Positions 6,795 to 61,906 of a stretch of 64,000 nucleotides of DNA are shown here, in pieces. The notes under the pieces were generated by a model, which ran no database searches, was not told where the DNA came from, and saw only the letters and a list, made by a program, of their open reading frames with translations. Made by a program: the position numbers and the translations under genes. Within the stretch, counting starts at the first letter, position 1. Each line of letters begins with the position of its first letter. The DNA is from Eshraghiella crossota (lineage in GTDB: Bacteria; Bacillota; Clostridia; Christensenellales; CAG-917). The DNA lies in assembly GCA_963590075.1 (NCBI GenBank), contig CAVANK010000006.1, positions 1,082 through 65,081 of the forward strand, read 5' to 3'.

Positions 6795-6871
6795 TGGTGC
6801 ACCCAAACGGATTTGAACCGCCAACCGTCAGAATCGGAATCTGATGCGCTATCCAGTTGCGCCATGGGTGC
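6795..6871 (-). tRNA. tRNA-Arg (anticodon CCG), CCA encoded
   Basis: Manual cloverleaf. Acceptor GCACCCA/TGGGTGC, D-stem GCGC/GCGC, anticodon stem TCAGA/TCTGA with loop TTCCGAT, T-loop TTCAAAT, discriminator A plus CCA. 77 nt. Confidence 0.9.
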
Positions 6872-13009: not shown

Positions 13010-13126
13010 ATACTAATATATATTTTTTAATACAAAAGTATGAGAGAATTGAAGATAAGAAAATCCACCGTCCGCGAAAATATTGAGCGGACTAAAAAAT
13101 AGTTTTTATGTTTTAATGTAAAACCA

Positions 13127-13172
13127 CGATTTTTAGATGAAAAGCAAGGAAAAGTTGTTCGCTAAATAGCGC
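13127..13172 (-). repeat. Internally deleted copy (E) of the structured repeat family
   Basis: Retains the outer arms CGATTTTTAG / CTAAATAGCG and the TAGATGAAAAGCAAGGAAA motif seen in copy D (17708..17820). The central stems are missing. Confidence 0.5.
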
Positions 13173-13184
13173 GCTTTGTAAAAA

Positions 13185-13300
13185 CTGCGATAAACAGATG
13201 AAGAACGCGAAAGCACCCCGAGGGGCGCAAACCCAACGTACTTTCGTACGTGATTTGCACAACTCGGGGTGCTGACAAAGTTATTCGCTGTTTAGCGCAG
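13185..13300 (-). repeat. Structured repeat copy A (type 1), 3 nt after the gap stop codon
   Basis: Nested inverted repeats CTGCGATAAACAG/CTGTTTAGCGCAG, GCACCCCGAG/CTCGGGGTGC, GCAAA/TTTGC, ACGTAC/GTACGT. The minus-strand apical loop is GAAA. A T5 run follows on the minus strand. Strand assignment is inferred. Confidence 0.7.
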
Positions 13301-13303
13301 TTT

Positions 13304-14356
13304 TTATTTGAGTTCGGAGAAGTACTTGATTGTACGTACCATTTGAGAAGTGTAGCTGTTCTCGTTGTCGTACCAAGCAACCACTTGAACTTGGGTGTTG
13401 CCGTCTTCCATAGGAGCAACCATAGTTTGAGTTGCGTCGAAGATAGAACCGAAACGGCTGCCGATGATATCGGAAGAAACGATTTGGTCGGTGTTGTAAC
13501 CGAAGGACTCGGTTGCCGCGGCTTTCATCGCTGCGTTGATGCCTTCAATGGTTGCTTGACCTTTGACGACTGCGACGAGGATCGTGGTAGAACCGGTCGG
13601 AGTGGGAACGCGTTGTGCAGAACCGATGAGTTTGCCGTTGAGTTCGGGGATAACGAGACCGATTGCTTTTGCAGCGCCAGTGCTGTTGGGGACGATGTTG
13701 ATTGCAGCCGCGCGAGAACGACGGAGATCGCCCTTTCTTTGCGGTCCGTCAAGAGGCATTTGGTCGCCCGTGTATGCGTGAACCGTGGTCATAATACCGC
13801 TCATAATAGGTGCATAATCGTTGAGAGCCTTTGCCATAGGAGCGAGGCAGTTGGTGGTGCAGCTTGCTGCGGAGATGATGTTGTCCGTTGCTTTGAGCGT
13901 GGTGTGGTTTACGTTGTAAACGATTGTGGGAAGGTCATTGCCTGCGGGTGCGGAGATGACAACTTTGCGTGCGCCTGCATCGATGTGTGCTTGTGCTTTT
14001 GCTTTTGAGGTGTAGAAGCCCGTGCATTCCAAAACTACGTCAACGCCGAGTTCTCCCCAAGGAAGTTCCGCTGCTTTTGCTTTTGCGTAGATAGTGATCT
14101 TTTTGCCGTCGACGACGATGTAACCGTCTTCTTTGATAGTGCCGTCCTCGTTGAGAACTGCTTCACAACTCTCAACCGTGTGAGAATTTGCATAGTTGCC
14201 TTGCGTCGAATCGTACTTCAAGAGATGAGCAAGCATTTTGGGGCTTGTCAAATCGTTGATAGCGACGATTTCATAACCGTCTGCACCAAACATTTGTCTG
14301 AAAGCGAGACGACCGATACGACCAAAACCGTTGATAGCGACTTTTACGTTTGCCAT
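13304..14356 (-). CDS. gap: Glyceraldehyde-3-phosphate dehydrogenase, type I
   Basis: [12 protein letters not shown] motif, catalytic [20 protein letters not shown] before ATG 14356. The track ORF extends to 14386. Confidence 0.95.
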
Positions 14357-14414
14357 TATAAATTCCTCCATAAAGGTGTATTCCAAAAATTAGTCGGATT
14401 ATCCAACCGCAATT

Positions 14415-14572: not shown

Positions 14573-16987
14573 TTAATTGTTAAATAGTACTTCTACGTTG
14601 CGCGGATTCCAATCTGAGCCTTTATAGACTGCTTCCCATTGTTCCTTCGTGCCGAGGAAAACGATACTCGTCAAACCTTCGCAATCGTAGAAAGCGTAAT
14701 CTCCTATAGTTGTTACACTATCTGAAATAGTGATATTTTTAAGTCCACCACAACCATAGAATGCCGATCTTTCTATACTTACCACGCTATTGGGAATCAA
14801 AATCTCTGTCAAACTTTCACAAAAAGCAAATGCAGAATCCCCAATGCTTGTCACGCCGTATGGAATTGTGATGCTTTTCAAGCCTTTACATTTATAGAAT
14901 GTTGAAGCGTCGATATATGTCACACCATTTGGAATTTTTACACTCGTCAAACGGCTACACATTGAAAATGCGCCGCCACCCAAAATCGTAACGCTGTCCG
15001 GAATATATATGTATGTCAAATTTACACAAGATTCGAATGCGCTCTGACCTATCTGTTTTACACCTTGTGGCAAAATCACAACTTTTACACTGTCTCTATT
15101 GTAAACCCCATTAATTATTTCTATAGGTTTGCCCTTATATAATGAAGGCAAAAACACGATTCCGTCCGAATTTGTTTTCAAATCGGTTGCGATATAGTAA
15201 CTTCCGTCTCTTGACAACGTATAGGTTGCGGTTGTATATTCAATCCCGCAATTGTCGCATCCGTTATCACCATAAACGTGGGGATGGGATTCCACGACTC
15301 CACACCTTGCGCAAGCTATGTCGTAGAAACACGTATCTTCACCGAAATTGTGACCGAGAGCGTCCGCTTCACCTGGGAAGGAAACGTTGCATCTGTTGCA
15401 AACTTTATAACCTACGCCCTTTTGAGTGCAAGTAGGCTCGGTATCGAAATGCCACTCTCCGAGGTCGTGACCGAGAGCGTCGACTATTCTGTCTTCCGCG
15501 CGATTGCACACTGCGCAAACGCGTCTTTCTCTACCCTCTTCCAAGCAAGTTGCAGCAACGCGCACCGTCCACTCACCGTAGTCGTGTCCGACGGGGTCTG
15601 TGTAAGTGGTTTCGACGTATCCGCACTTGTCGCAAGTCTTTTGAGAATATCCCTTTCTTGCGCAATCGGGGTCTTCGATAAGCATTTCCTCACCGTAAAC
15701 GTGTCCTTTTATCGGCGCTTCGTAGTCGCATCTGGAACATTTTGCGGCAGTCGTACAAGTTCCGCCTTGCAAATCGTGTCCAAGGCTGTATATCGTGCCG
15801 TTGGTCGTTTGTCCGCAATTATCGCAAACTTGGCGTTTTACACCGTTTTCAGTGCAAGTTGCGGGCGTTACGACCTTCCACTCTCCCGTATGGCTTTTCT
15901 TTGATATAGTATAGGTGTCTCTTCTTCCGCACTCTTCACAAGTTCTTGCTTGCAAGCCTGTAGAAGTGCAAGTCGCTTCCGTCTCCGTCTCCCATTCGGA
16001 ATAACGATGCGAGCCGTAAATAGTTCTCGTTTGTTTTGCGTTGCAAACGTCGCAATACATAACTTCGAGACCGTTTGACGTGCACGTGGCGGCGGTTTGG
16101 ACGCTCCAAGTGCCCTTATGTCCCGTTGCGGAAATAGTTTTCGTTTCGTGGTTTCCGCAAACCGTGCAATCGCGATACGCAGAGCCTGCTTGCGTGCAAG
16201 TGGGTTCTTGCGACGTAACCCAATTGCCAGTATGAGCAGTTTTGGACGTAGTTCTCTCTTGCGTTTTTCCGCAAACGAGGCAACGTCTTGACTCTCTTCC
16301 CGCTTGCGTGCAAGTTGCTTCTTCACCGGCAGCCGACGCCCATTCGCTGAACACGTGTCCCGTGCCCGTGCCCTCGACGTAGTGGCACTTGGAGCATTTT
16401 CTGCCCTCTTCGCAAGTGGCTTCTTTCAAATCGTGATGACCGATTGCGGGCAATTCTTCCGTTTCGACGGTGTCGCAAACGGTGCATATACGCTGTCTTT
16501 CACCTTTGTCGAAACAACGAGGTTCGGCGGTTATATACCAATTGCCCTTGTGAGACGCGGGTATAGGATAAGTTTGAGCGTCACCGCATCTTCTGCAAGT
16601 TTTGGTAAGCACACCGTTTTCGGTGCAAGTTGCCTCGGCGGTGACTACGCCGTCGTTGTAATCGTGCCCGAGTGCCTCTCCGTATTCCTTCGAGCATACT
16701 TGGCATACCGCGGGCTTCAAACAAGTCGCTTGTCCTCCGTGATGCCCCGACGCAGTGCCGAAAACGTACTCTTCACCCAGCGTTCCGCATATCGAACAAT
16801 GTTTATAATACACGGCAGGTTCTTCGCAAGTCGCTGCCGATTTGAGATACTGCCCCGCTTGCCCTTCAATAAATTCGTGTTGATGCTCCCAATTATCCGT
16901 TTGCCCCGGCTTTTCACCGCAAGCAACGAATATAGTTGCCACAAGCATAATCAAAACGAATATAAGCAATATTCTTGCCTTCTTCAT
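14573..16987 (-). CDS. Surface lipoprotein: 16 tandem His/Cys-rich C...CxxC units followed by BspA-type leucine-rich repeats (target of cassette 4)
   Basis: Lipobox FVAC. Units of the form GH-x(n)-TC-x(5-9)-C-x2-C (CSIC, CQVC, CRRC ... CDNC). C-terminal repeats of the form ITIPxSVTSIGxxAFxxCxxL. GGAGGGG RBS before ATG 16987. Confidence 0.8.
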   Translation of the reverse strand: MKKARILLIFVLIMLVATIFVACGEKPGQTDNWEHQHEFIEGQAGQYLKSAATCEEPAVYYKHCSICGTLGEEYVFGTASGHHGGQATCLKPAVCQVCSKEYGEALGHDYNDGVVTAEATCTENGVLTKTCRRCGDAQTYPIPASHKGNWYITAEPRCFDKGERQRICTVCDTVETEELPAIGHHDLKEATCEEGRKCSKCHYVEGTGTGHVFSEWASAAGEEATCTQAGRESRRCLVCGKTQERTTSKTAHTGNWVTSQEPTCTQAGSAYRDCTVCGNHETKTISATGHKGTWSVQTAATCTSNGLEVMYCDVCNAKQTRTIYGSHRYSEWETETEATCTSTGLQARTCEECGRRDTYTISKKSHTGEWKVVTPATCTENGVKRQVCDNCGQTTNGTIYSLGHDLQGGTCTTAAKCSRCDYEAPIKGHVYGEEMLIEDPDCARKGYSQKTCDKCGYVETTYTDPVGHDYGEWTVRVAATCLEEGRERRVCAVCNRAEDRIVDALGHDLGEWHFDTEPTCTQKGVGYKVCNRCNVSFPGEADALGHNFGEDTCFYDIACARCGVVESHPHVYGDNGCDNCGIEYTTATYTLSRDGSYYIATDLKTNSDGIVFLPSLYKGKPIEIINGVYNRDSVKVVILPQGVKQIGQSAFESCVNLTYIYIPDSVTILGGGAFSMCSRLTSVKIPNGVTYIDASTFYKCKGLKSITIPYGVTSIGDSAFAFCESLTEILIPNSVVSIERSAFYGCGGLKNITISDSVTTIGDYAFYDCEGLTSIVFLGTKEQWEAVYKGSDWNPRNVEVLFNN

Positions 16988-17026
16988 ATTTGCCCCTCCT
17001 ACATACCTTAAACGTTTATACACTCC

Positions 17027-17081
17027 ACTGGCAAATTGCCAGTAACTCTATAATTATACTGGCAAAATGTCATAATGTCAA
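17027..17081 (-). promoter_or_regulatory. Cassette 4 control region: consensus minus-strand promoter TTGACA-N17-TATAAT with operator-like dyads
   Basis: -35 at 17081..17076, -10 at 17058..17053. Perfect dyad ACTGGCAA-A-TTGCCAGT at 17027..17043, just downstream of the -10. A 13/17 copy lies at 17058..17074 in the spacer. Confidence 0.65.
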
Positions 17082-17317
17082 TTATGAAAGCAGATACAAA
17101 CGTACAAACTGTAAAATTTTTGCGTGTTAGAATTGCGGAATTGCGAAAGGAAAAAGGATTGTCGCAAGCCACGCTTGCAAAAGCGTTGGGAGTCGATTGT
17201 TCGACCATAGCGAAGTACGAAACGGGGGACAGACTTCCCGACGTGGTAATGCTTTGCAAATTGGCAGACTTTTTTGAAGTAAGCACGGACTATTTGCTTG
17301 GCCGTGCGCCATTTTAG
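17075..17317 (+). CDS. XRE-family HTH transcriptional regulator (cassette 4)
   Basis: LSQATLAKALGVDCSTIAKYETG HTH and a DYLLGR tail. The in-frame ATG at 17084 is equally plausible: CATAAT at 17071..17076 lies 7 nt upstream and there is no SD. Confidence 0.8.
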   Translation: MSIMKADTNVQTVKFLRVRIAELRKEKGLSQATLAKALGVDCSTIAKYETGDRLPDVVMLCKLADFFEVSTDYLLGRAPF

Positions 17318-17361
17318 CGTGTTTTTTGAATTGGTAATTGCCGTTATTTGCAAGTTTAGAT

Positions 17362-17398
17362 AAAAAAGGTGTTTTTGAAAATCAAAAACGCCTTTTTT
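17362..17398. terminator. Bidirectional intrinsic terminator (XRE gene 4 on plus, fba 3' region on minus)
   Basis: A6 - GGTGTTTTTGA-AAA-TCAAAAACGCC - T6. Confidence 0.7.
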
Positions 17399-17451
17399 GA
17401 AAGGATTTGAAGGATATTTGCTATTTTATATTTATAAAAGTATGTAAAACC

Positions 17452-17551
17452 GCAATAAACGGATGAAGAGCGCGAAAAAGCCCCTTGCACGGCAACCCTA
17501 ATTTACTAATCGTAAATGAGTTGACGGACGGGCGTTGACGCCGTTATTTGC
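17452..17551 (-). repeat. Structured repeat copy B (type 2, degenerate)
   Basis: Outer arms GCAATAAACGG / CCGTTATTTGC. Shared motifs GATGAAGAGCGCGAAA and CAACCCTAATTTAC-loop-GTAAATGAGTTG. Confidence 0.6.
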
Positions 17552-17575
17552 CATTATATATATCTTGTAAAAGTT

Positions 17576-17686
17576 CGCCAAACAGATGAGTAACGCGAAA
17601 GCACCCCGAGGAGCGCAAACCCAACGTACTTTTCGTACGTGATTTGCGAAACTCGGGGTGCTGACAAAGTTAATCGCTGTTTGGCG
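17576..17686 (-). repeat. Structured repeat copy C (type 1), close copy of A
   Basis: Aligns with 13185..13300 with roughly ten differences by manual alignment. One difference is a compensatory change in the outer stem (CGCCAAACAG / CTGTTTGGCG). Confidence 0.7.
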
Positions 17687-17707
17687 GACTTTTAGTCTTA
17701 CCTAAGG

Positions 17708-17820
17708 GCGATATTTAGATGAAGAACAAGAAAGAGCCGTCCGAACGGCAACCCTAATTTACTATGCGTAAATGAGTTGACGGACGGACGGCTCTGCCGT
17801 AGTTATTCGCTAAATAGCGC
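17708..17820 (-). repeat. Structured repeat copy D (type 2), 2 nt after the fba stop codon
   Basis: Nested arms GCGATATTTAG/CTAAATAGCGC, AGAGCCGTCCG/CGGACGGCTCT, CAAC/GTTG, ATTTAC/GTAAAT. Same architecture as type 1 with different stem sequences. Confidence 0.7.
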
Positions 17821-17822
17821 TC

Positions 17823-18752
17823 TTAGGCTTTGTGGTCGCAACCAAGGACGTCCACAATCTTATGCTTTACAACTTGCTTCACTGCCTCTCTTGCCGGTCC
17901 GAGATATTGACGAGGATCGAAGTGAGAAGGATTGAGAGCAAAGTGCTCGCGGATTGCGGCGGTGCAAGCAAGACGGAGGTCGGAGTCGATGTTGATCTTG
18001 CAGACTGCCATAGAAGCCGCTTTACGGAGCATATCTTCGGGAACGCCTTGTGCGCCGGGCATACTGCCACCGTATTGGTTGATGATCTTGACGAGGTCTT
18101 GCGGGACGGACGAAGCACCGTGCAAAACGATGGGGAATCCGGGCAAACGCTTGCTGACTTCTTCGAGAATGTCGAAACGAAGTTGAGGTTGACCTTTGAA
18201 CTTGTATGCGCCGTGAGACGTGCCGATTGCGATTGCGAGAGAATCTACGCCGGTCTTGTTGACGAATTCTTCAACTTGGTCGGGATCGGTGAATTGAGCA
18301 TCTTTTGCAGCAACGTTGACTGCGTCTTCGATGCCGGCGAGTTTTCCGAGTTCTGCCTCGACGACTACGCCGTGATCGTGTGCGTATTCGACAACTTGCT
18401 TGGTGATGCTGATATTTTCTGCAAACGGATGTGCGCTTGCGTCGATCATAACGGAAGTAAAGCCGTTGTCAACGCAGTCTTTGCAGAGCGCGAAGCTGTC
18501 GCCGTGATCGAGGTGCAAGCAGATAGGAAGACCGCTGGTTTCGACCGCTGCCTCAACCATCTTGGTGAGGTAAGTCGTGTTTGCGTATTTTCTTGCGCCG
18601 GAGGATACTTGAAGAATAAGCGGAGCTTGCTCTTCGGTAGCGGCTTCGACGATACCTTGGATAATCTCCATATTGTTGACGTTGAAAGCACCGATTGCGT
18701 AACCGCCTGCGTATGCTTTTTTGAACATTTCGGTTGTAGTAACTAATGGCAT
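17823..18752 (-). CDS. fba: Fructose-1,6-bisphosphate aldolase, class II
   Basis: LHLDHG, VMIDAS and LHGASS motifs. GGGAGG RBS before ATG 18752. The track ORF extends to 18767. Confidence 0.95.
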   Translation of the reverse strand: MPLVTTTEMFKKAYAGGYAIGAFNVNNMEIIQGIVEAATEEQAPLILQVSSGARKYANTTYLTKMVEAAVETSGLPICLHLDHGDSFALCKDCVDNGFTSVMIDASAHPFAENISITKQVVEYAHDHGVVVEAELGKLAGIEDAVNVAAKDAQFTDPDQVEEFVNKTGVDSLAIAIGTSHGAYKFKGQPQLRFDILEEVSKRLPGFPIVLHGASSVPQDLVKIINQYGGSMPGAQGVPEDMLRKAASMAVCKINIDSDLRLACTAAIREHFALNPSHFDPRQYLGPAREAVKQVVKHKIVDVLGCDHKA

Positions 18753-20705: not shown

Positions 20706-23700
20706 TTAGGCAAGGGTGATGGCTTGACCTGTTCTATCGTAGAACGTAAGCGTTGCAACATTGTCACAAAGTTTATCCGCTGTTATTTCACCGGCGGTTG
20801 ACGTCCAAGTCACGTTATCGTAGACTTTGTCTTCCCACACCAACGCATAAACTGTTTGTCCATCCTTCACATATGACACAACAACCTTATTTGCTGCACC
20901 CAAATGTTTGTATTGATGAATTTGGGTGCCTGTATCGGCCTGCGCTGCGAAATAAAAGTCAGTGCCTAATGTTGGATTGTTGCGATAAGGGCATATTATA
21001 ACATTTCCATCAAATGCCATAAACCTACTGTAGCTACCATCAACGATTGCCGTTCCGTCATCATTGATTTTGCCACTGATTGTGCCACTTACGGTTCCAT
21101 CTGCCGCAACACTCAACGTATAGCTACTAAGATCTTTGTCGAACTCACTATAAACATTTGCTATAATATAAGAACCATACCATTGCACCGCCTCAACCCA
21201 TTCGCAATAAACAGTCGTATCTTCTGTGATGGTCGTTGCCGTGAAGTCAACTTTGGTTACGCCCTCGTCGGCAGTGGTGTACCACTTGCTGAACGCTTTG
21301 CCGTTGGTGAATTCAGGTATATGCTGACTCATATTAAGTGCATCGCCTGCGCCATAGACAACAGTCTTGTTCTTAAGTTCGTTGCCATAGACAATTGTCA
21401 AAGTGACTTTTACGTCCCATTTTGCAACAAGCGTAACATCCGTCATTGTCACAAACTCTGTCATTGAAACAAGAGTTTGATCTGCATCGTTTTGCACATA
21501 CCAACCACGGAATACTTTGTCCGTTCTTTCTGCCGGTGTTGACAAGGATGTCTTGATACCTGCAAGCGCGCTATCAGATACAACAGCATCTCCGCCGTCG
21601 TTGACATACGTAATTTCGACATTGTTTGTCTCCATAGCGTACTTATAATCCGTAGTGTTGATGAACAATTTGTTTGAGATTGAACTTACAGCGGCAGAAT
21701 CGGATTGATAGATTGCATAGAAGGATGCGTCATAACCTTCTTTAGTGAATTCCGCAACGGTGTACGTTCCCACTGTGTTTCCATCGCTAAATGTTATCTT
21801 GCCCATACCATTCAACGTGATTGTATCATCACCATCTTTGTATGTGCCTTGATAACCGTCCAAAGCGACAAGTTGAGTTCCGTCATAACCGAGGCTGTAC
21901 AGAGGCGCAGTTGCGTCCTGTGATGCGTAGATTAACACACATTCTGCATTATAGACTTTGCCACATGCAATGTGAGCGCCATTGATGTCAACCACTTTCG
22001 CATCGAAATGCACGTTGCCGTTTTCAATCAACAATGTGTGTGTCTCACTGCTTGTACCATTGCTTACGACATAATCCAAGACGGAATTTTTGCCATCCCA
22101 CGTAGTTGCATTGGTTGCACTAACACTATATCCTTCCGGCATGAAGAATCCGAATTTGGAGATGGTCTCGGTATCCTTTGTATAACTTGCGACAATAACA
22201 CCTGTTGCGCTATCGACAATACCGTAGAAAGTATACGTTGTGTTTTTGCTACTATCTTTATTGTACTTGACAACGGTGAATGTGATCTTACCCGTTGTCG
22301 CATCATAAGCAGTTACACTTATTCCATAGCCAAGATAAGTGGGCTCATCGTCATCATCGTCATATCCCCATCCGCGTTCGCTTGAGTTTGTGCTCGAACA
22401 ATCAAAGAACGGCAATGTTTCTTTTTTATCAGTTCTGTCAAACGTACCTTTGCCGGTCGTTCCGTCAAACGTTACAGTGGTTGAATAAGTAGGTTTGCTG
22501 GCGTATGACGTTCCGGATTTTGTAGATAAGCTTGAAACATATACAAACGTGTATGTCTGTGCGTAAGCACACTCATCCCATTTTGCGTATACGTCTTTTG
22601 TTGAATCTGCAATACCATTCCAAGCATTTTTAAACGTCGTATCATCAAGATACCAACCGCCGAATGCATATTTCGCTCTCGAAGGATCTGCCACCGACTG
22701 TGTTTCATCTTTTGAATACACAACCGCTTTATTTGCCGTTGTGCCATCATTGTAGTGATACGTAATGGTGACAGGCGTCGAATATTTTGCATAGAGCGTT
22801 ACGCTCTTGGACGTTGCAAAATTGCTCGCGTCCGCTACTTTTCCCGTTTCGGCGAATGCCTTATCCGTGTAATATCCGTTGAAAACGTAACCATCAACAG
22901 TTCCGTCAGGAAGTGCCACACCGATATTTGCGTTTACACTCATCTCTGCGATGGTCTTATTAATGCCTTCTGGCACAACAAACGTGATCGTCACCATCGG
23001 CTTTTCAACAGTATAAGTGCTGCCATCGAGAGTTGCCGTGTAGTACTCAACGTTCTTGCCGTCGCTGACGACGTAGAGATCAAACGTCTTTGTATCCGCA
23101 TTGGTCACAGTATAAGTACCGGTCTTTGTACCCCAAGCGAATTCGCCCGTTCCACCGAAGACAAGATCATCTTTACCTTCACAAGTATAAGTGCCAAAGT
23201 ATGCGTCGAGTTCACGAGGCAAATATGTTGACGAAGTGCTTTCTCCGATTGTCGATTTGCCTTGCGCTGCAGCGCGAGCGAATATCACATTGCCGTCTTT
23301 ATATACAACGACAGACGCAGCGTTTGCAATAGAATTTGTTTGGCTCTTATCAACAACAAGAGCGTTGCCGAGCGCATCTTTAATTTCAACACCGCTGTAA
23401 ATCTTGTTGCCATAAGTAAAGACGTTGGTGTTGTCGCCAAGCGCCGTCTTTGCTTGGATGAATTGCGCGTAATAACTGGTAAGCGTACTGTCCACCTTCA
23501 CTGCATATACGCCATATTGTGCTACAACTTTACCTGTAGAAGGCATATCTTGACCGAGGAAATAATAGTCATAACCAATATTGTTATTGTCATAGATGCC
23601 AAGGATTATTTTTGCGTCGGCATCGAAATAGAACGTGCCGTTTGTCCACGTGATTTTTTGCGTTGTAGGATCATAAGCCGTAACCGTGCCGGTCCTAAGT

Positions 23701-26159
23701 CCGGTAATATTGCCTTGTTTATCAATGGTTAGCGTCTTTCCGCCGGAATTGCCATTGCTCAAATACCACAGTTCAGTACCGTAGTATGTGCCGACATAAT
23801 CAGGGATAATGTCCCACAATGCGATAACCGTGATGTTTTCGATTGCGGTCAAATCTTCATCGAGATCCTCATCGTCTGCTTCGGTGTATTTGCCGTCGCC
23901 GTTGGAGTCGACAACCCACTTGACAAAACTGCGTCTATTTGTCAAATCGTCGCCATAGGTTGGTAATTTGCTATAGATAGCTTCGCCATAAGGCACGGAC
24001 ACCGTGTCGGGATCACCCTCTGCTCCGCCAATGATAGTAATGGTGACAGGCTCTTTCCACACAGCGGTAAGCGTAACTGCCGTGCCGTCGGGAGTATACT
24101 CTGTGACATAACCCTCTTGACCTTCGATTGTCCAACCAACCAAAACCAAAGTTTTGCCATCAACGATGACGTTTTCAATTGTAGGCAAAGTGAATTTGAC
24201 GTTGTTGTTGACGCTCTTATATGCGTCACCGATTGTGTCTTCACCATAAGCCGAGACATACGTGATTGCGGTCATCGGTTTGGTGAGTGCGATTGCGCCA
24301 TCGGTCAACGTAAACGTATAGTATGCGGTTGCATTTTCTTTGCTTGTGCCGACATAAAGCTCATAGTAGCCTGCTTCGTTATAGGAATAAGTGCCCGCTT
24401 CACCGCCAACAGTTGCGCCACCGATACCGTTGAGCACCACTTCGCCGTAGTTTGCATCGTTATATGTGCCTTCTTTGCCGTCTGTCTCTTGGAAGTTGCC
24501 TTCTGCATTCTTTGCATAAGCGATAATCTTTGTTCCGTCTTCTGCAAGCACTTTGACATAACTCGCGTTGTAGCATGCATCCGCTGCAAGTTGCGCACCG
24601 TTTGCATCGACAAACTTAACTCCGAATGCACCGCTTACGTCATTGCCGTCTTTTTCAACGTAGAAATTGAACGTGTGTGAACCGACAGCACAATCGTAGT
24701 TGTAAGAGCCGACAGTAAAGCCATTCCATGTGGAACCTGCAAACGAATTCATCTTGAGTGTGTCTTCAAGCGGTGAAAGCACATACACTTTCTTTTCGCT
24801 TACGCTCAAAACGATGATGCCGTTGGTCATATCGACGTAACCGGCATATGTTGTCGCGCCAATCGTATACTCGATTTGTCCTGTTGCGGCATCAATCATC
24901 TTGATTGAGTTTTCACCTTCCAAAGGTGAGTATGTTCCGGTACCCTTACTGGTTGCCGCATCGATTGTTACGACCGCTGTGGTCCAAGAATATATGCCCG
25001 CTTTCCCGATTTGCACATCGTCGCCAACGTACAACTCCACGGCGTGATAGGTCTTTCCGTCATAAGGAGCAACAAGTTTGGCGACTTCAAGTCTATAAGT
25101 CCATGAGTTTTGCTTGTAAACAGTGTAACCTGCCTCGTTGTATGTTGCGACTTTGCTTTGGCTGTCGTCTTTTGTCCAAGTGTATTCAAGATAACCGAGG
25201 TTTCCGTTATTCTCGCTTTCATCAACATGCTTATATCCGCAAACAGTGCAATCGTGCATCGGTATAATTTCAGTGCCGTTATTGTCTTTTTCTGCAGTCA
25301 AATAAGTCGTGCCATAGGTGTGTGCAACATAGGGTGATTGTTCGGTGTCAAACTCACCGCACACCATGCATTTCTTTGCATGACCTACAGAATCTTCATT
25401 GGTTTCCTCCGCGATATCGCCATCATCGTCGGACTGAGTATATTTATCATAGTATGGGAAATATGTATCACCAAAGACATGGCCGGTTGCAGGCAAAATC
25501 ACAACGTCTTGATACTCGCAATCATAGCAGTATCTGATCTTGACACCGTCTTCTTCGCAAGAAGGCTCTCTGTACGTGGTGTAACCACTGTACCTGTGCT
25601 CGTGAGCAACTTGATCATACTCAAGAGTGAATGTACCGTACTCGGATTGGTAAGTTGTAAATCCTTTGCTTGTGTACGTTGCTGCTTGGCTTGCAGTCAC
25701 CGTCCAGACAGACGAGTCCGTAAGCACTGCTACCGTTGCCGTGTCAACATCGCCACATGCGCAAGATCGCGTCGCAGTACCCGTCTCTGTCGTGGTCGGG
25801 TTCTTTGTGAGCGTCCATGCACCATAGGTGTGCGTGTCGGTCGCGTCACTCGTCGTTGTGACGGTGCCGTATGCCGACTTGTACACTTTGAAACCTTTGC
25901 TGGTGTGAGTTGCGTCTTGACTTGCCTCGACCGTCCACACCGATGCGTCGCTCAATTGTGCGACGGTAGCGGTTTCCACATCTCCGCAAGCGCATGTTCT
26001 CGTTGCCGTGCCGGTTGCCGTTTCCGTCGGTTGCGTTGTGATGCTCCATGCTCCGTATGTATGAGTATGTTCGGGTTGAGTGCCCTCATCACAAGCAACA
26101 AACAAAACCGCAAGTATTGCAACGATTGCAATCACAAACATAATTTTGTTTCGCTTCAT
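20706..26159 (-). CDS. Giant surface lipoprotein (1817 aa) with a Cys-module N-terminus and multiple Listeria-Bacteroides (InlB B-type) repeats
   Basis: Lipobox FVAC. Tandem duplication of about 75 aa (THTYGAW...TRxCACGDV...). Repeats ending in GW(Y/T)...(A/V)(K/L)W(D/K/V), e.g. AFGGWYLDD...VYAKWD and VFRGWYVQN...LVAKWD. GGAG RBS. Confidence 0.85.
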   Translation of the reverse strand: MKRNKIMFVIAIVAILAVLFVACDEGTQPEHTHTYGAWSITTQPTETATGTATRTCACGDVETATVAQLSDASVWTVEASQDATHTSKGFKVYKSAYGTVTTTSDATDTHTYGAWTLTKNPTTTETGTATRSCACGDVDTATVAVLTDSSVWTVTASQAATYTSKGFTTYQSEYGTFTLEYDQVAHEHRYSGYTTYREPSCEEDGVKIRYCYDCEYQDVVILPATGHVFGDTYFPYYDKYTQSDDDGDIAEETNEDSVGHAKKCMVCGEFDTEQSPYVAHTYGTTYLTAEKDNNGTEIIPMHDCTVCGYKHVDESENNGNLGYLEYTWTKDDSQSKVATYNEAGYTVYKQNSWTYRLEVAKLVAPYDGKTYHAVELYVGDDVQIGKAGIYSWTTAVVTIDAATSKGTGTYSPLEGENSIKMIDAATGQIEYTIGATTYAGYVDMTNGIIVLSVSEKKVYVLSPLEDTLKMNSFAGSTWNGFTVGSYNYDCAVGSHTFNFYVEKDGNDVSGAFGVKFVDANGAQLAADACYNASYVKVLAEDGTKIIAYAKNAEGNFQETDGKEGTYNDANYGEVVLNGIGGATVGGEAGTYSYNEAGYYELYVGTSKENATAYYTFTLTDGAIALTKPMTAITYVSAYGEDTIGDAYKSVNNNVKFTLPTIENVIVDGKTLVLVGWTIEGQEGYVTEYTPDGTAVTLTAVWKEPVTITIIGGAEGDPDTVSVPYGEAIYSKLPTYGDDLTNRRSFVKWVVDSNGDGKYTEADDEDLDEDLTAIENITVIALWDIIPDYVGTYYGTELWYLSNGNSGGKTLTIDKQGNITGLRTGTVTAYDPTTQKITWTNGTFYFDADAKIILGIYDNNNIGYDYYFLGQDMPSTGKVVAQYGVYAVKVDSTLTSYYAQFIQAKTALGDNTNVFTYGNKIYSGVEIKDALGNALVVDKSQTNSIANAASVVVYKDGNVIFARAAAQGKSTIGESTSSTYLPRELDAYFGTYTCEGKDDLVFGGTGEFAWGTKTGTYTVTNADTKTFDLYVVSDGKNVEYYTATLDGSTYTVEKPMVTITFVVPEGINKTIAEMSVNANIGVALPDGTVDGYVFNGYYTDKAFAETGKVADASNFATSKSVTLYAKYSTPVTITYHYNDGTTANKAVVYSKDETQSVADPSRAKYAFGGWYLDDTTFKNAWNGIADSTKDVYAKWDECAYAQTYTFVYVSSLSTKSGTSYASKPTYSTTVTFDGTTGKGTFDRTDKKETLPFFDCSSTNSSERGWGYDDDDDEPTYLGYGISVTAYDATTGKITFTVVKYNKDSSKNTTYTFYGIVDSATGVIVASYTKDTETISKFGFFMPEGYSVSATNATTWDGKNSVLDYVVSNGTSSETHTLLIENGNVHFDAKVVDINGAHIACGKVYNAECVLIYASQDATAPLYSLGYDGTQLVALDGYQGTYKDGDDTITLNGMGKITFSDGNTVGTYTVAEFTKEGYDASFYAIYQSDSAAVSSISNKLFINTTDYKYAMETNNVEITYVNDGGDAVVSDSALAGIKTSLSTPAERTDKVFRGWYVQNDADQTLVSMTEFVTMTDVTLVAKWDVKVTLTIVYGNELKNKTVVYGAGDALNMSQHIPEFTNGKAFSKWYTTADEGVTKVDFTATTITEDTTVYCEWVEAVQWYGSYIIANVYSEFDKDLSSYTLSVAADGTVSGTISGKINDDGTAIVDGSYSRFMAFDGNVIICPYRNNPTLGTDFYFAAQADTGTQIHQYKHLGAANKVVVSYVKDGQTVYALVWEDKVYDNVTWTSTAGEITADKLCDNVATLTFYDRTGQAITLA

Positions 26160-36697: not shown

Positions 36698-39600
36698 TTA
36701 TATAATCGTGCGTTTAATAACGAGCACCAGTCCCGCAAGCGCGAGAGAGGACGCAAACACGATTGCAAAGCCGATGTTGTTCGTTGCGTCTTTGAGAGGC
36801 GTAACTTGCTCTGTTATCGTATTGCGGTACTCGTTGTACGACGCTTTGAACGCGTCGAGTTTGGCCGTATCGAGGATTGCTCTGTCGCTTGCTTGCAACG
36901 CGTCCATTTGCTCGATAACGTTCTTAACGGCGTCGATTGCTCCCACGCTGAACGTGTCGGGCAATGCGTAGATGAGTGCTTGAACCGCTTTGACCTTTTC
37001 GCTTGCGTTGGCAAATTTGAGATTTCTAATCGTCGTCTTTGCGTCTTGAACCGCTTTGACGAGAGCGTCCCACTCTGCCTTGTCGTAGCCGTACGTCGTC
37101 GGATTTTGCGTTACGGAATTGTATGCCGTAAGCGCGTTGCTTACAAGTTGTTCGTTTACGAGGGTTACGTTTTGAAGCGCAGCCACTTGTTTTGCGTAAT
37201 CATAGAACTCGATCAAACTCTTTTCCATTGCCTCGTAGTCGCTTCTGAGAGCGTCTTCGACACTGCCGAAGTACACGAGGTATACAAGCGAATCGTATCC
37301 TTCAACCTTTGCGTTGGAAGGCAAAATCATAGTAATCGGATTTTTCTTTCCGAGCAGGTCGATGAAGTTGAAATACGCAAGTTCGTAGTTGAATACGTCG
37401 AATTGATTGTGAAGCAATTCGTATCCCGGATCGCTTGTCGAGAGCGTTGCGTCCTTGTTGTAGCAGTTTTCCATTGCAGGCGCTACAACGGACTTAAACT
37501 CAACGCTTTTAAGCGCGGTGTATCCGTAGAACGCGTATTGTCCTATACGTTTGAGTCCGTCGGGAAGCACGATCGATGTGATGTTGACGTTTGCGTTGCC
37601 CGCATAATCGTCAATACGCACCGTGTCGTCCATAACTACGAGTTCTTTCTTATACGCACCGCCGGGAACCGCTTTGAGTTCGTATTTACCCGACGCGAAT
37701 TTTACATAGAGAGCGCCGTCGTTCAAAAGCGCGTAATCGTTTATCTTACCGTCGGCGGAAGTCACGTTTTGACCGCTCGTATAGCGACCGAAACTTCTCA
37801 ACGACGTGCATCCGTAGAACGCGCCTTTGCCGATGCTCTCGAGATCGGACGAGAACGTAAACGATGCGAGCATTGCGGACTTTTCAAATGCGGAGTTTCC
37901 TATGGTTTTGAGCTTCGGAGCATTGAAAGCAGTGATGCTCGTTGCTTGGAACGCATAGTTGCCGATGCTCTCGATTTTGTCCGCATTCACTATTCCGTAA
38001 AGTCCGGTTTGAGCAAACGCACCTTCACCGACAGACACGACGTTTGCAATATCCACGCTTGACAAAGGAGCAAGCGTAAACGCGTATTGACCTATCTTGG
38101 TGACTTTTGCAAGGTTGACCGTCGCAAGCGATTCGCAACCGCCGAACATATAATCGGGAATTTCCGTCATATTGTCGGGAAGTTGCGCCGATTTAAGAGC
38201 CGTGCAGTACGCAAACGCATAGTTGCCGACTTTTGTCACGGAAGACGGAATGACGATGCTTGCAAGTTTAGTGTTGTAAAGGAATGCCATTTCCCCGATT
38301 TCTCGGAGCGTAGAGGGCAATTCGATAGTCGTGAAGCACGAAGCGGATCCGAATTGGCTATAGCGACCGAATGCGCAAGCCCCGATGACCTCTACGATAG
38401 GCACGTAGACTTCGGAAAGTCCCGCGCAATCCGCAAAAGCGTAATCGCCGACGTACTTGACGTTTGCAAGATTTGCTTTCATAAGCAAGGTGCAACCGTA
38501 AAACGCTTCCCTTTCGATGGTATCGTCCGTCTTGGAGAGGTCGATGGTGTGAAGTTTCGTATCGTTTGCGAAACAGCCTTGTCCGATATGGACGTTTCCG
38601 CCCTCGGGCATATTCACGACGCCGAGGCGTACGCAGTTTTGGAACACGCCGAGGTTGAGCGTTACGTTTGCGCCGAGCGTAACCGTTTCCACGCTCGAAT
38701 TGAGGAACGCACCCTCGCCCACTACCGTGTTTTCGCCGATAGATACCGACGCAATCGCGGTGTTTACGAAGGCGTATTCTCCGATGCTCGTCAACTTGTC
38801 GAGGTTGACCGCTTCTTTAAGAGAGGAGCACGCCGCAAACGCTCTCTTGCCCACCGTTGCGCCCGTTTCGGAAGCAAAGGTGACTTTTGTGAGAGTATCG
38901 CAACCCGCAAATGCAAAATCACCGATTGCGGTGTCTTTGCTTTCAAACGTTACGGTATTCACTTTCACGCCCGCAAAAGCACTGTTTGCGATAGCGGTAT
39001 ATTTTGCGTCGATAACCAAATCTCCGTATTCGGCGCCGACCGCCGCCAAAACTATCGTACTTCCGTCTTTTGAGAGCAAATAGTTGCCTTCCGCCGAGTA
39101 GTTGGTATTGCCCGCGGGCACTTCGAACGCAGAAAGTGCGGTGTCTTTGAACACGAAGCCTTCGATTTGTTTGATTTTAGTATTCGCGCCAAAAGTCACT
39201 TTGGCGAGTGCACTGCACTTGTAGAACGCATAAGGATCGATTTGCACTTCGCAATCGGGAAGCGTGATGTTTTCAAGTGCCGAGGAGTTGTAGAACGCTT
39301 GCTCTCCGATAACTCCGATACTACTTCCAAACTCAACGCTCGTAAGTGCGGGGCAATCGCTGAATGCACCTTTGCCTATCGACAACAAGTCGTTGTGAAT
39401 GGTCACACTCTTAAGGTCGTTGCATTTTGCAAAGCAATATTCGGGGATAAACGTGCGTTGATTGTATATATCCACGCTCGTAAGTCCCGACTTTGCAAAC
39501 ATTGCATAGGAAAGTTGAGTCGACTTGTCGAGCACCACGCTCGTGAGAGACGTGCAGTCCTTAAACGCTTCTTTGCCCGTATTGCGCAACGACGTGAGGT

Positions 39601-42600
39601 TTACGCTCGTAAGAGACGTGCAGTATTCGAATGCGTTTGCGCCGATACTCAAAATGTTTGCGAGATTGATGCTTGCAAGCGCTTTGCAGTTTTTGAACGC
39701 GGACGCACCGATAACTTCCACTTTGCTTTGAGTGAGGTCGTTGCCCTCAACCATCGTGCCGTCTTCTTTGACGACATTGATAGTTTCGAGTTTCTTATCA
39801 CCGTAGAATGCAAATTCACGTATATATTTGACGGAATCGGGTATAGTCACCGATTTGAGTCCCGTGCAGTTGTAGAAGGCGTATTTCTTGATTTCCTCAA
39901 CGCCCTTGGGGATAACCACACTCGTAACACTGGTGTTGGAAGCGGGGATTTTGTTTGCGTCGTAATCGTCCTCGTCAAGCTCCACGGAGTTGTCCGTTTC
40001 GTACAAGCAGAACGCAAACGCGCCTATGTACAAAATGCCTTCGTCGTCGGGGATAACGACGTTTCCGCCAAGACCCTTATACGCGACAAGTTCACGATTT
40101 TCGATGACGAATTCGTTCTTGACTCTTATGGTAACCGACGCTTGAATGTAGGAGTTTTTCGGCTTTATCGTTATGATTGCCGAGCCTTCTTTGAGTGCGG
40201 TCACTTCACCCTTTTCGTTGACTTGCGCGATATTGGTGTTATTTGAGGAATACTCGAACTCGTATTTCTCCGACACATACCACGGCTCTACGTCGTAGTT
40301 GAGTCTTATTTTCTCACCTGGGTACATGCCTATATCCGAAGCGGAAGCAACAAATCTTCTGTCCCCCGTCTTGCCTATCTCGCTGGTTTGCGCCGCACGA
40401 GAGTATGCAAACAACGTGTCGTAGTACGAGAATCTCAATTCTTTGAGCGTCGCTTTGTTGTAGTCGTCGGCAACCGATTGAAGAGATATATCGCTTGTCG
40501 AGGCAAATACGTCCGTCGCACTCGTAGTCGCCGCCTCGTCGTCGGACGAGGACGCTCTCTTCTTGACGTTGATTATGACAACCGCTTGGTTGAGTTCCAT
40601 CTGTTCTTTCACCGTTACGGTTGCTTTGCCCTCCGCGATGCACTTGACAAGACCGTTCTTGACTTCGAGAACGTTTTCGTTGGAAGAAGACCAATTCAAG
40701 TATTTCAAATAGTCTTTGTCTTCGTCGACGCTGTCGTCCCCTGTCGCAAGATATTGCGTAAGGTCTATGACTTCGTCTTCGTAAGCGGACAAAATGATGA
40801 GGTCGGAGCCGTCCATCGTGCCGTCTTTGGTGAACTTGAAGTCACCCTTCGTGCCGGGAAGTTGACAAAGGAAGATGTTAGAGTTGAGCGCGTAGTCGTC
40901 GATAGAGAACGCAAGCGCACTTGTAATCAACGCGTCGTTGCCGATATCTTTGAGGTAGTCGGTTATTTCAAATTTTATCGTGGTATCCGTGCCCTTTTCG
41001 CTATAAACGGGGATAGGATTCTCCGTAAGGAAGGTATAACTACTGCTCGACGTGAAGATAATCGGCGTTATCGATTGCACGTATTGATTGTCGTAGACAA
41101 CCATATTGATATAGTATCTGTCCTTTTTGAGAGTACGGTCGTACTTTTTCTCGTACGTAACGCTCTTGATGACGGGCGCTTCGTCGTCTGCCGTGAAGTC
41201 GAAACCGAAACTGTTTCTGACGTTCTTTGCGGCACCTCCGTCGCCGTAGTCAAGCTCGCCTTTCATCTCAAAGGTGTATTCGGTGTTGTTGACCAGACCG
41301 TTTGCCAAAGACTTGAATTTGAGTTGTTCGTAATAAGGATACGGACTTCCGCCATAGGAATAGGCTTTGGTTGCGTTGTAGTCGACGTGTTCCCAAATGA
41401 CCTCGCCCGTGGCTTTGTCTTTGATGGTGAACGTCATCGTCTTTGCGCCTCTCAAAAGTCCCGCGTACACCACCGAGATACCGTCAATCGTGCCGAGAAT
41501 GTTGGATATCGCTATATGATCCTCGGTTGCGGGGATTTCGTCGTATTTGTCGGTATCCACGTCGTACAAATACGTTCCGAGAGGAATAATGTAGTTGTAG
41601 AAATACGAACCGTAAGGCGTCGTCGCGTAGTAATCGGCTTTGATTTTGTCCTCGTCGTCGATTGCCTTGTCGTGCGCTTCGGATTCCACTTCGTAATAGG
41701 TTTTGTCAAACATCGGAGCTTCCGTCCAATCGCCGTAGAAAGCGAGGAAAGGCACATTGAGGTCGACGTTCTTTGCGTCGTCGGTTTCGTCACCCGTTTG
41801 TTTGAGTTTTATAAATCCTTCGACGTACATACCGTACGGGAAGAGTTTTTCGATAAGTTTCTTTTCTTCGCTCGTGAGAGTGTACGTCACCTTCACTTTT
41901 GCCGTTGCGCCCGCATTAACGGTGAGTTTGTTGCCGTCAAGCGTCCCTCCCTCGACAATCTCGAAGTTCTTTACGCCTTCGAGGATTTGAGGAGTTTCCG
42001 CAACGTGCGTTTCGTCGGAGGTAGACACGCTTTCCGTCATACCCACGAGTGACAAATCGTACGTCAACACATCGTCGGAGATATTTACGACGTTGAAAGA
42101 CATCACATACAAGCCCGTTCTTTGAGGATCGTCAAAGAGTTCGATCTTGGTGCGGTCTTTAGTGTACGTGTTACCCTCTTCGTCTTGTGCGTCGACGGTG
42201 AGATACGCTCTTGTCGCAACGAGGTTTTTGAGGCTGGCAAGCCCCGCGCCCTGCTTGCGCGGAGAATACGGATTGCCTTCTTCGTTGAGAGCAATCGTAG
42301 CCGTGGACATCAACATTTGATTGGTGAGGACGGAGATTTCTTTCCAGTTCTTGTCGGGGTACTTCTCTTTGAGGTATTGTCTTATAAGCACCACGATACC
42401 GCAAAGGTTAGGCGTTGCCATAGACGTACCGCTCAATTCGTCGTATTTGTTGCCGGGCACTGCGGACTTGATATTTCCGCCGTGTGCGGTGATTTCGGGT
42501 TTGAGTTCAAGCGACGGAGTCGGACCCCAACTTGAAAAGTCGGACATAAACGGGCCTGCTTGGTTGCTGTAAGCAATGGTAAGCGTTCCGCTCTTCTTTG

Positions 42601-60915: not shown

Positions 60916-61329
60916 TTATCTCTTGCTGAATTGAGGAGCTTTACGTGCCTTATGCAAACCGTATTTCTTACGCTCTTTTGCTCTCGGGTCACGAGTGAGG
61001 TAACCTTCGCTCTTGAGAGTTGCTCTGTAGGCTTCGCTGTCTGCGACGCAGAGTGCTCTTGCGATGCCGTGACGGATTGCACCGGCTTGTCCGGTGTAAC
61101 CACCGCCGTAAACGTTGACGTACACGTCAAACTTGTCGGTCGTGCCGGTTGCAACGAGAGGTTGATTGACGATGAGTTTCATCGTGTCAAGCGGGAAGTA
61201 CTCGTCGAGAGTGCGCTTGTTGATGATGATTGCGCCTTCGCCGCCGGGGATAAGACGAACTCTTGCGATAGCGGTCTTTCTTCTACCGGTGCCGAGATAT
61301 TGAACTTTCTTGGTTTTCTTAGTAGCCAT
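60916..61329 (-). CDS. rpsI: 30S ribosomal protein S9
   Basis: 137 aa. [20 protein letters not shown]-terminal ...KAPQFSKR. Confidence 0.95.
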
Positions 61330-61343
61330 ATTCCACCTCTCAA

Positions 61344-61808
61344 TTAGTTGAGTTTGAGCTCAACGGGGCATTGTGCCTGATGATCGTGCTCTGCACCTGC
61401 GTAAACGCGGAGTTTTTTGAGCATTTTTGCACCGAGCGTGTTTTTGGGAAGCATACCCTTGACAGCCTTGTACACGACGAATTCAGGTTTTTCCGCCATC
61501 AATTTCTTGTATTGGATTTCTTTGAGACCGCCGATGTATCCGGTGTGATAACGATAGTATTTGTCCACGAGTTTGTTGCCCGTGAGGACGATCTTATCGC
61601 AGTTGATTATAATAACGTGGTCGCCGCAGTCGACGTTGGGAGTGTATTGGGGTTTATTTTTGCCTTTCAAGATTGTAGCAACTTGAGATGCAAGACGTCC
61701 GAGAACCATATCGGTTGCATCGACGATATACCACTTGCTTTCCACTTCGCCCGGCTTTGCCATATAAGACTTATTGTTTTTTGCCATTGAAGACAAATCC
61801 TTAGCCAT
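61344..61808 (-). CDS. rplM: 50S ribosomal protein L13
   Basis: KWYIVDA and [13 protein letters not shown] motifs. GGAGG RBS before ATG 61808. The track ORF extends to 61838. Confidence 0.93.
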
Positions 61809-61906
61809 AGTGCTAACCTCCATAAATTGTTTTTGCAAGGCGTATGCCGAACTCGGAGGGGCTAGTTCTTCGCAAGGTCATACTTCTTCCAAAAATATGC
61901 TTGTTA

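Follow-up and report, generated by a model that had tools for sequence, protein, structure and literature searches.

Among the palindromic repeats of bacteria, ERIC/IRU (enterobacteria), Correia/NEMIS (Neisseria), bcr1 (Bacillus cereus), RUP/BOX (pneumococcus) and MIRU (mycobacteria) are transcribed palindromes resembling miniature inverted-repeat transposable elements (MITEs), and we know of none in which nearly every copy begins with a stop codon. [quoted passage not shown] REP and REPIN elements are mobilised by RAYT (Y1 HUH) transposases (Bertels and Rainey 2011; PMC3116915). Here we describe a large and apparently undescribed family of near-palindromic repeats, five copies of which lie behind the glycolytic genes fba and gap in a 64,000-nucleotide (nt) stretch of Eshraghiella crossota DNA (contig CAVANK010000006.1; the whole stretch is referred to as the window), and whose placement in sense orientation, anchored on the stop codon of the preceding gene, sets it apart from other palindromic interspersed repeats.

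Fold and stop-codon anchoring of the hairpins

The 505 nt of non-coding sequence between the fba stop and the next gene are made up of three head-to-tail near-palindromes and then a terminator-like hairpin, and a shorter array follows gap. The features of the two arrays are as follows.

17823..18752, minus strand: fba, coding sequence of class II fructose-bisphosphate aldolase (ATG 18752-18750, TAA 17825-17823; Pfam PF01116, E=1e-106)
17701..17827, minus strand: element D, intact, stop-proximal (inverted repeat I1; folding z -8.4; covariance model 136.7 bits)
17568..17694, minus strand: element C, intact second copy, of the subfamily of A (I4 and I5; z -11.2; 109.9 bits)
~17443..17555, minus strand: element B, the third copy, in decay (z -1.7; 66 bits, model positions 19-119)
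17362..17398, no strand assigned: AT-rich, bidirectional terminator-like hairpin (I6; 17-nt arms, 94% complementary, flanked by A and T runs)
17075-17317, plus strand: XRE-type helix-turn-helix (HTH) gene (Pfam domain HTH_3)
13304..14386, minus strand: gap, open reading frame (ORF) of glyceraldehyde-3-phosphate dehydrogenase (stop TAA 13306-13304; Pfam Gp_dh_N and Gp_dh_C)
13179..13306, minus strand: element A, intact, stop-proximal (z -9.5; 131.9 bits; its first three bases are the gap stop codon)
~13119..13178, minus strand: element E, internal-deletion remnant (pairwise alignment; 20.8 bits)

The original prediction, made from the window alone, had described three rod-like elements after fba, and these are present with small corrections to their coordinates; A, C and D fold far better than shuffled sequences, and B reaches only z -1.7 (the z values refer to RNA folding of the minus strand against shuffles, and the plus strand gives about equal values because the elements are near-palindromes). 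Element D had been thought to start 2 nt after the fba stop, which needs revision: its arms occupy 17701-17752 and 17776-17827 and hold the stop codon (17823-17825) within the outer stem. With a covariance model trained on relatives, the 64 kb yield exactly these five copies, every one of them on the minus strand and the same number as first counted, and the division into two sequence types, A/C and B/D, reflects real subfamilies. In B, AT-rich sequence stands in place of the 5' outer arm up to GCAAATAAC and the 3' arm is retained (arm scores -4.8 and +13.5, respectively), and E consists of the outer arms and both core boxes joined by TTTTCC, the inner stems having been deleted. Pfam confirms the identities of fba and gap, and the terminator first placed at 17362-17398 corresponds to a terminator-like hairpin that separates the fba array from the convergent HTH gene.

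Each unit is a single long hairpin of ~125-135 bp that opens with a stop codon (TAA or TGA) and closes with the complement of that codon (TTA or TCA). From base to apex it comprises an outer stem of 14-19 bp and variable sequence, a core box that is invariant, asymmetric and in the same orientation in every copy, an internal loop (6x5), ~11 bp of stem with hypervariable sequence, and an apex that is semi-conserved (UCA-YGUAC-loop-GUAC). Within the core box GCGAAUARC pairs with GYUCUUCAUC, in the order G-C, a 1x2 loop, GAA/UUC, a U.C mismatch and ARC/GYU. The conserved motifs of the original prediction occur four times in the window against 0.14-0.21 expected by chance; they had been read on the antisense strand and taken to be unpaired, whereas on the sense strand GCGAAUARC and GYUCUUCAUC mostly pair, as a 7-bp box with the U.C mismatch and bulges.

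Genomes and metagenomes were searched with the sense-strand pattern GCGAATARC-N55-85-TTYNYGYTCTTCATC, derived from fba relatives. It matched at least 116 loci in ~45 genomes, four of the genome matches being chance matches, and at least 120 loci in metagenomes, mostly of the human gut. The loci are fragments of 1-15 kb, mostly from metagenome-assembled genomes (MAGs), in which ORFs were called mechanically. Among the matches listed, 112 of the 132 genome copies with a recognisable core (~85%) have a sense ORF running into them and stopping within the 5' arm (raw ORFs of at least 60 codons), and 89 of 109 metagenome copies are likewise entered by a long sense ORF; the 20 genome exceptions are mostly downstream members of tandem arrays. 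For 83 of the 112 genome copies the stop codon coincides with the hairpin's first base pairs, 14-19 nt (up to 23) before GCGAATA; the remaining entering ORFs continue into the arm and close at a 'backup' stop there (ATT-TAG/TGA-GCG or GAA-TAA-C). About three quarters of the copies use TAA as the stop and most of the others TGA, and the distance of 14-19 nt to the core does not fix the reading frame. All three stop bases are paired in 67 of the 83 copies, and in 31 of them pairing runs at least two pairs into the last sense codon, against ~12 estimated on the assumption of a probability of ~0.375 per extra pair.

Orientation is equally one-sided. Within a strict 'base of stem' interval, the matches listed include 65 sense and no antisense-only copies in genomes and 68 sense and two antisense-only copies in metagenomes, or 133 against 2 combined. 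Genes of Firmicutes are ~75-85% co-oriented with replication, which falls far short of 133:2, and replication-strand bias alone is thus not the source of the orientation. The original prediction had suggested a REP/MITE-like element that targets terminator regions; the anchor is instead the stop codon itself, with the element in sense orientation. The stop concerned is, as judged from C-termini, the native stop of the gene: the fba protein ends in ...HKA with and without an element, element-free orthologues included, and the ...SKR ending of an S9-like gene is identical at the element-bearing locus L119 and at an empty site in the window. Eighteen hairpins (loci L012-L250) have two convergent genes ending at the two feet of one element. 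In these convergent cases the two TAA stops would pair with each other and the element would fill the whole intergenic space.

Census, host genes and transcription-unit ends

The original prediction of a multi-copy structured family is borne out by the census: covariance model R1 gives 161 non-overlapping copies, the five of the window included. Because the copies outside the window were collected with the strict core pattern, or with a model that had itself been derived from copies collected in this way, divergent and core-less relatives are under-sampled. The hosts among the matches listed are nearly all uncultured Clostridia (Christensenella sp. UBA..., CAG:475, CAG:238, Limadaptatus and Stercoripulliclostridium). 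Contigs from MAGs of the same species carry an identical fba array, two of them ending inside it. In strains whose fba protein is 96% or 92% identical, two or three elements directly follow the fba stop, with different stem sequences and the same motifs, and relatives at 89% identity have an ordinary terminator instead. Four short-read MAG/Logan contigs (L002, L003, L006 and L007) end inside arrays directly after fba. The elements fragment assemblies at the 3' ends of housekeeping genes.

Database searches support the earlier view that the element belongs to no known Rfam family. Rfam 15 at gathering thresholds returned only a tRNA for the whole window (tRNA gene 6798-6871, minus strand), a sensitive Rfam search of 17300-17900 gave at best 20.5 bits against a threshold of 55 bits, with all matches chance-like, and an Rfam search of the copy at locus L103 (below) gave no match. 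There was likewise no match in 'distant' blastn searches of plasmid and phage collections, and the core pattern had three matches in IMG/VR viral contigs, none of them upheld by the covariance model. Our full-text literature search found no description of the family or of sense, stop-codon-anchored repeats.

Among the matches listed, the only convincing copy outside Clostridia is at L103 (7491-7624 of CAVQYC010000004.1, a 'delta proteobacterium' MAG; 70 bits). It retains both AT-rich core boxes and the apex at 61% GC. Its orientation is antisense to the genes on either side; the upstream ORF stops 28 nt before it, and the next gene starts just beyond it. This copy reflects either horizontal transfer or a wider family, and it indicates that the stop-codon rule may not be valid outside Clostridia.

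The family shows no restriction to glycolytic genes. Upstream of 91 copies, 118 different Pfam families are represented, fba recurring five times and EF-G, L1 and GAPDH also recurring, and highly expressed genes of the window itself, such as rplM and its neighbour, carry no element. The tie first drawn to two glycolytic genes, taken to be the most highly expressed, is not supported. In that region (60916-61154 / 61347-61838, minus strand) ribosomal protein L13 is followed by the 169-residue ORF ending in ...SKR; this is probably S9, with no Pfam match at 1e-6. No element follows its stop, an empty site where an ordinary terminator lies ~30 nt downstream, and the L119 orthologue carries an element. 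Truly empty orthologous sites in general have plain terminators 30-60 nt after the stop, and some otherwise 'empty' ones hold solo 5' remnants together with ordinary terminators. An empty site in which the fba stop is joined directly to its terminator was sought in metagenomes without a match.

The orientation of the downstream neighbour is random (59 same, 58 opposite), and the next co-directional gene is a median of 236 nt away, against 46 nt at element-free gene ends, which places the copies at the ends of transcription units. Of 94 and of 104 copies, 53 and 60 respectively (~57%) close the 3' arm with a T run of at least four, on a stem base rich in G+C; ~31% lack a T run altogether. In a strict terminator scan, separate terminators followed 16 of 130 arrays, compared with 72 of 432 control ORF ends.

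Other observations concern the surroundings of the window arrays. A sigma-70-like promoter match at 17553-17581 (minus strand; TTGGCG, 17-nt spacer, TATAAT, 10/12) is composed of the 3' arm of C and the AT-rich linker replacing the 5' arm of B and is directed at B and the terminator; it may be a chance match. Large secreted-type proteins adjoin the arrays on the minus strand, at 14576-17023 (an 816-residue Cys-rich repeat protein with BspA-type leucine-rich repeats, PF13306) and at 20709-26159 (an ORF of 1,817 residues). Several families of 40-51-nt imperfect direct repeats (D2, D4, D6) at 37496-39643, inside a 2,527-residue minus-strand ORF (36701-44281), are presumably repeated protein domains. 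Nearly all of the 35 window ORFs of at least 100 residues lie on the minus strand.

Mobile DNA hairpin or RNA module

We favour the view, to which we give about an even chance of being right, that the family is a non-autonomous, REPIN/MITE-like recombining palindromic DNA repeat that is recognised in the form of a folded single strand and appears in transcripts as a hairpin of the 3' untranslated region (3' UTR). The pairing itself is well supported. In an alignment of 117 copies, for which RNAalifold gave a consensus structure of 41 pairs, 34 pairs show compensatory (double) changes; 92.4% of the cells on this structure are paired, compared with 68.3% after shuffling and 36-47% when partners are slid, and the covariation score is 0.586 against 0.164, with none of 500 shuffles reaching the observed values. 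Even the free R/Y positions inside the search pattern covary (A-T 81, G-C 36, A-C 3, G-T 0), 36 of 120 copies among the matches listed having AGC...GCT instead of AAC...GTT. Compensatory change was thus rightly anticipated in the original prediction. Its composition is informative as to level: of 4,762 paired cells, 4,299 are Watson-Crick, 103 are G.U and 115 are A.C. Wobble pairs are close to neutral within a long RNA helix, where they should be far more numerous than A.C. That the two are about equally frequent means that pairing is kept without tolerance of wobble, which argues against long-term compensatory evolution of an RNA and suggests that selection on pairing does not act at the RNA level. 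The balance agrees with a DNA hairpin as the form recognised, or with copies 'born perfect', made from intact masters and decaying at random thereafter. Of the two possibilities first put forward, the REP/MITE-like element fits best, and the structured 3'-UTR module is weakened, although an effect at the RNA level is still compatible with the data.

The arrays resemble stacks. In most of them the stop-proximal copy scores highest (136.7, 109.9 and 66 bits and 131.9 and 20.8 bits in the window; 139.7, 90.7 and 44.1 bits at L004), and distal copies have typically lost the 5' arm exactly up to GCGAATAAC and kept the 3' arm (mean arm scores -3.2 and +7.5). Arrays contain no ORFs. Chimeric copies, remnants and precise inner deletions all exist: L033 and L071 share outer arms around different inner modules, the junction AACTTTTCCTTG of element E recurs in L046, and in L095 (3244-3773), L027 and L046 the 3' arm is lost exactly after TTCATC, beyond which the three loci, two of them from one genome (CP091723), share a flank of ~110 nt that begins CGAACAAAAGCCGTCATTGCGGCAACGGC. 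In L095 this flank leads into a gene for the bacterial large signal recognition particle RNA (Rfam RF01854, 153 bits).

Members of one subfamily, 94-99% identical, stand behind different genes in different genomes, and a copy identical to element A is present in L084. Near-identical copies at different genes (L098/L088 and L028/L090) share exactly the interval TAA...TTTTA and nothing outside it; L022/L120 share ~400 nt and L099/L102 ~190 nt, downstream decayed copies included, with the left boundary again at the stop. At ~560-800 of L022 and ~1930-2180 of L120, two genes of one genome, repeated GTATTT(A/C)TTGC units lie between short hairpins; these may be another repeat family or antisense remnants of the core box. 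Conversely, L004 and L007 have identical fba proteins followed by unrelated elements. Element identity at orthologous stops is bimodal, and in one class the elements are at 0.6-0.75, the background between subfamilies, next to ORF ends at 0.93-0.99.

On the reading as a recombining DNA repeat, an enzyme would deliver new copies to the stop codon, reading the conserved core in the folded single strand, which would leave the stem sequence free to vary as long as it pairs. Recombination junctions would lie at the outer edges of both core boxes, and older copies would be displaced downstream and decay, a sequence of steps deduced from static comparisons rather than from events observed directly. 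Lying between the stop and the gene's own terminator (where present), the element would be transcribed as the start of the 3' UTR. It is plausible that the hairpin then blocks 3' exonucleases or serves as an auxiliary terminator, a role that would explain why it is tolerated at transcription-unit ends only; the terminating ribosome is another possible site of action, as the outer stem is about as long as the downstream footprint.

Several observations weigh against such a repeat. Copies within a genome have a median pairwise identity of 0.71, and only 8 of 230 pairs reach 0.9 or more, unlike a recent MITE burst. Some orthologous elements are 0.90-1.0 identical where the last 150 nt of the ORF are at 0.79-0.92, and an element more conserved than the adjacent ORF suggests constraint in place. 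For 135 copies with mapped ends, flank repeats of 3, 4 and 5 nt number 2, 2 and 0, against 2.3, 0.9 and 0.1 in shuffles, so that the target-site duplication for which the copy borders were to be inspected is not seen above the shuffled level. A Pfam scan of 28 of the 35 window ORFs found no transposase or recombinase, and no full-length parent insertion sequence was seen in the fetched loci, which were not searched for one systematically. The main tension concerns the target: recognition at the DNA level alone cannot tell an in-frame TAA from any other TAA or TTA in AT-rich 3' UTRs, and yet, among the matches listed, hardly any insertion is antisense or away from a stop. Selection, or a coupling with gene expression, is thereby indicated, and the DNA reading offers no account of how the in-frame stop and the direction of the gene would be sensed.

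Three simpler accounts of placement failed. A TA-duplication model predicts A or G after the element, found in only ~10 of 28 copies by hand count (A+G 58 of 135 overall); homing of a subfamily to its own gene conflicts with the presence of the same subfamily behind different genes; and the outer stem is not an inverted copy of the target, since outer stems share a family consensus.

The rival that survives best, possible if doubtful in our estimation, is a cis-acting 3'-UTR RNA module of the host, spread by duplication and gene conversion, with proposed roles in mRNA stabilisation, in tuning termination or ribosome rescue, or in protein binding. In one form of this proposal the terminating ribosome (footprint ~12-15 nt downstream) would melt the outer stem only and present the core at the mRNA entry; in another, a protective hairpin would follow so closely on the ribosome-covered ORF that no naked RNA is left in between. 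Such a module would account directly for the near-absolute sense orientation and registration on the stop, for pairing into the last codon above chance, for stop-proximal copies that alone stay intact while distal ones decay, and for orthologous copies more conserved than their coding sequence. Retention of the AT-rich core in the 61% GC copy, recurrence behind housekeeping genes (the repeated cases of fba, EF-G, L1 and GAPDH) and the effect on termination reported for E. coli REP hairpins point the same way. It is difficult to reconcile with the near equality of G.U and A.C despite the near-neutrality of wobble in long RNA helices, with a stop-to-core distance and frame that vary, with the replacement of one subfamily by an unrelated one behind identical genes, with chimeric and truncated copies whose junctions fall at the core edges, and with the fact that most genes, the ribosomal protein genes of the window among them, have no element.

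A further proposal, which we consider unlikely, couples integration of a mobile element to expression, such that the element is delivered to the stop of a transcribed and translated gene, on the coding strand. Release of the ribosome from the nascent RNA might expose single-stranded non-template DNA, or an RNA intermediate might start at the stop codon, and the enzyme would be one that acts on folded single strands in gut Clostridia. If true, this would be the first mobile DNA known to target translation termination sites, and the arrays would be a built-in recorder of successive insertions.

Less probable again is an attC-like site, in which the folded strand would rebuild the double-stranded site of a tyrosine recombinase (GAATAAC/GTTCTTC plus bulged bases), and ORF-less 'cassettes' would enter at one fixed point with the newest in front, in the manner of integrons at attI. 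This would suit a conserved structure of variable sequence, an asymmetric box with AAC...GTT triplets, arrays ordered newest-first, junctions exactly at the outer edges of the core boxes (as in the shared outer arms and differing inner modules of L033 and L071), the lack of target-site duplication and a pairing signature at the DNA level. The box, on the other hand, departs from the consensus RYYYAAC/GTTRRRY, with AGC/GCT in the 36 of 120 copies noted above, the copies are dispersed behind housekeeping genes rather than gathered in one array beside an integrase, no integrase was found in the 28 of 35 window ORFs scanned, and stop-codon recognition is left unexplained. To our knowledge integron integrases are essentially unknown in Firmicutes.

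That the copies are long intrinsic terminators, alike by common descent of 3' regions and with neither mobility nor a function beyond termination, is very improbable: the G+C-rich stem base, the T run in ~57% of copies, the position at transcription-unit ends and the 18 hairpins common to two convergent genes are outweighed by the ~31% of copies without any T run, the separate canonical terminator after the window array, the ordinary short terminators 30-60 nt after the stop at element-free orthologous sites, near-identical copies after unrelated genes, and an invariant asymmetric core that termination does not need.

Four functional motifs were also considered and rejected. A recoding signal of the SECIS/PYLIS kind does not agree with a variable spacing of 14-19 nt and a variable frame, nor with downstream frames that close at different places. 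A kink-turn or box C/D motif read from plus-strand GATGA...GAAA and CCYAA...TGA lacks tandem G.A pairs, as the strand opposite GATGA has no GA, the apical loop sets AA opposite GA, and the plus strand is antisense to every host gene. Loops like those of the hairpin ribozyme lack an AGAA/GUC loop-A pair, and a small plus-strand ORF from the conserved ATGAAGA has inconsistent lengths (12 and 24 codons).

The preferred DNA repeat and its rivals leave two options of wider interest, a mobile element that senses the end of translation or the uncoupling of transcription and translation, or a 3'-UTR hairpin tied to the terminating ribosome, and hundreds of natural variants with the core fixed and the stems free make both directly testable. 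The family abounds in gut metagenomes of humans and animals, its stacks behind a gene are a strain-level marker of recent history, and the covariance model is an annotation tool.

Comparison with known systems

In its behaviour the family is closest to REP/REPIN elements and the transcribed MITE-like palindromes, and in its apparent mode of recognition to attC sites or the ends of IS200/IS605 elements. Like REP/REPIN, its members are palindromic, extragenic repeats that fold into long hairpins, lie for the most part between genes in 3' regions, are non-autonomous, have no target-site duplication and persist as evolving populations of sequences; recognition of a folded single strand, as for REP/REPIN, would explain the conserved pairing. 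Unlike REP/REPIN, the 117-copy consensus has no GTAG tetranucleotide and no repeated short REP unit, being a single hairpin of ~130 nt with conserved, asymmetric halves. Many divergent, low-copy subfamilies per genome take the place of one master in hundreds of copies, the hosts are gut Clostridia, registration on stop codons is strict and in sense, and no RAYT/Y1 transposase was found in the Pfam scan of 28 of the 35 window ORFs.

Integron attC sites are also imperfect palindromes of similar size (57-141 nt) in which structure matters more than sequence, with conserved boxes near the base, bulged bases that give strand asymmetry and a variable centre, and they too directly follow ORFs in newest-first arrays. 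They differ in the box (GAATAAC...GTTCTTC here, against RYYYAAC/GTTRRRY with invariant AAC/GTT) and in setting, the present copies being dispersed behind chromosomal housekeeping genes (118 families), with 'cassettes' that lack an ORF and no IntI/attI context. The ends of IS200/IS605 elements share asymmetric boxes near the hairpin base, otherwise free sequence and the lack of duplication. A MITE derived from an insertion sequence would have terminal repeats with target-site duplication, which this family does not.

The ERIC, Correia, bcr1, RUP/BOX and MIRU families are, like this one, imperfect palindromes (theirs of ~100-160 bp) that are co-transcribed, and their RNA hairpins can change mRNA stability or processing; MIRU also abut stop and start codons in operon orientation. 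These families differ in having terminal repeats with duplications (TA, TTTAT and others) or, for MIRU, in being direct-repeat minisatellites, and they occur in both orientations and at many intergenic positions. As in the stop-proximal REP sequences of E. coli, a stable hairpin directly after the stop would be expected to interfere with the terminating ribosome; there, only a subset of elements is so placed and the stop lies outside the hairpin, whereas here the placement is the rule of the family. Registration on the stop is thus far stricter than in REP, ERIC, Correia and other bacterial palindromic repeats.

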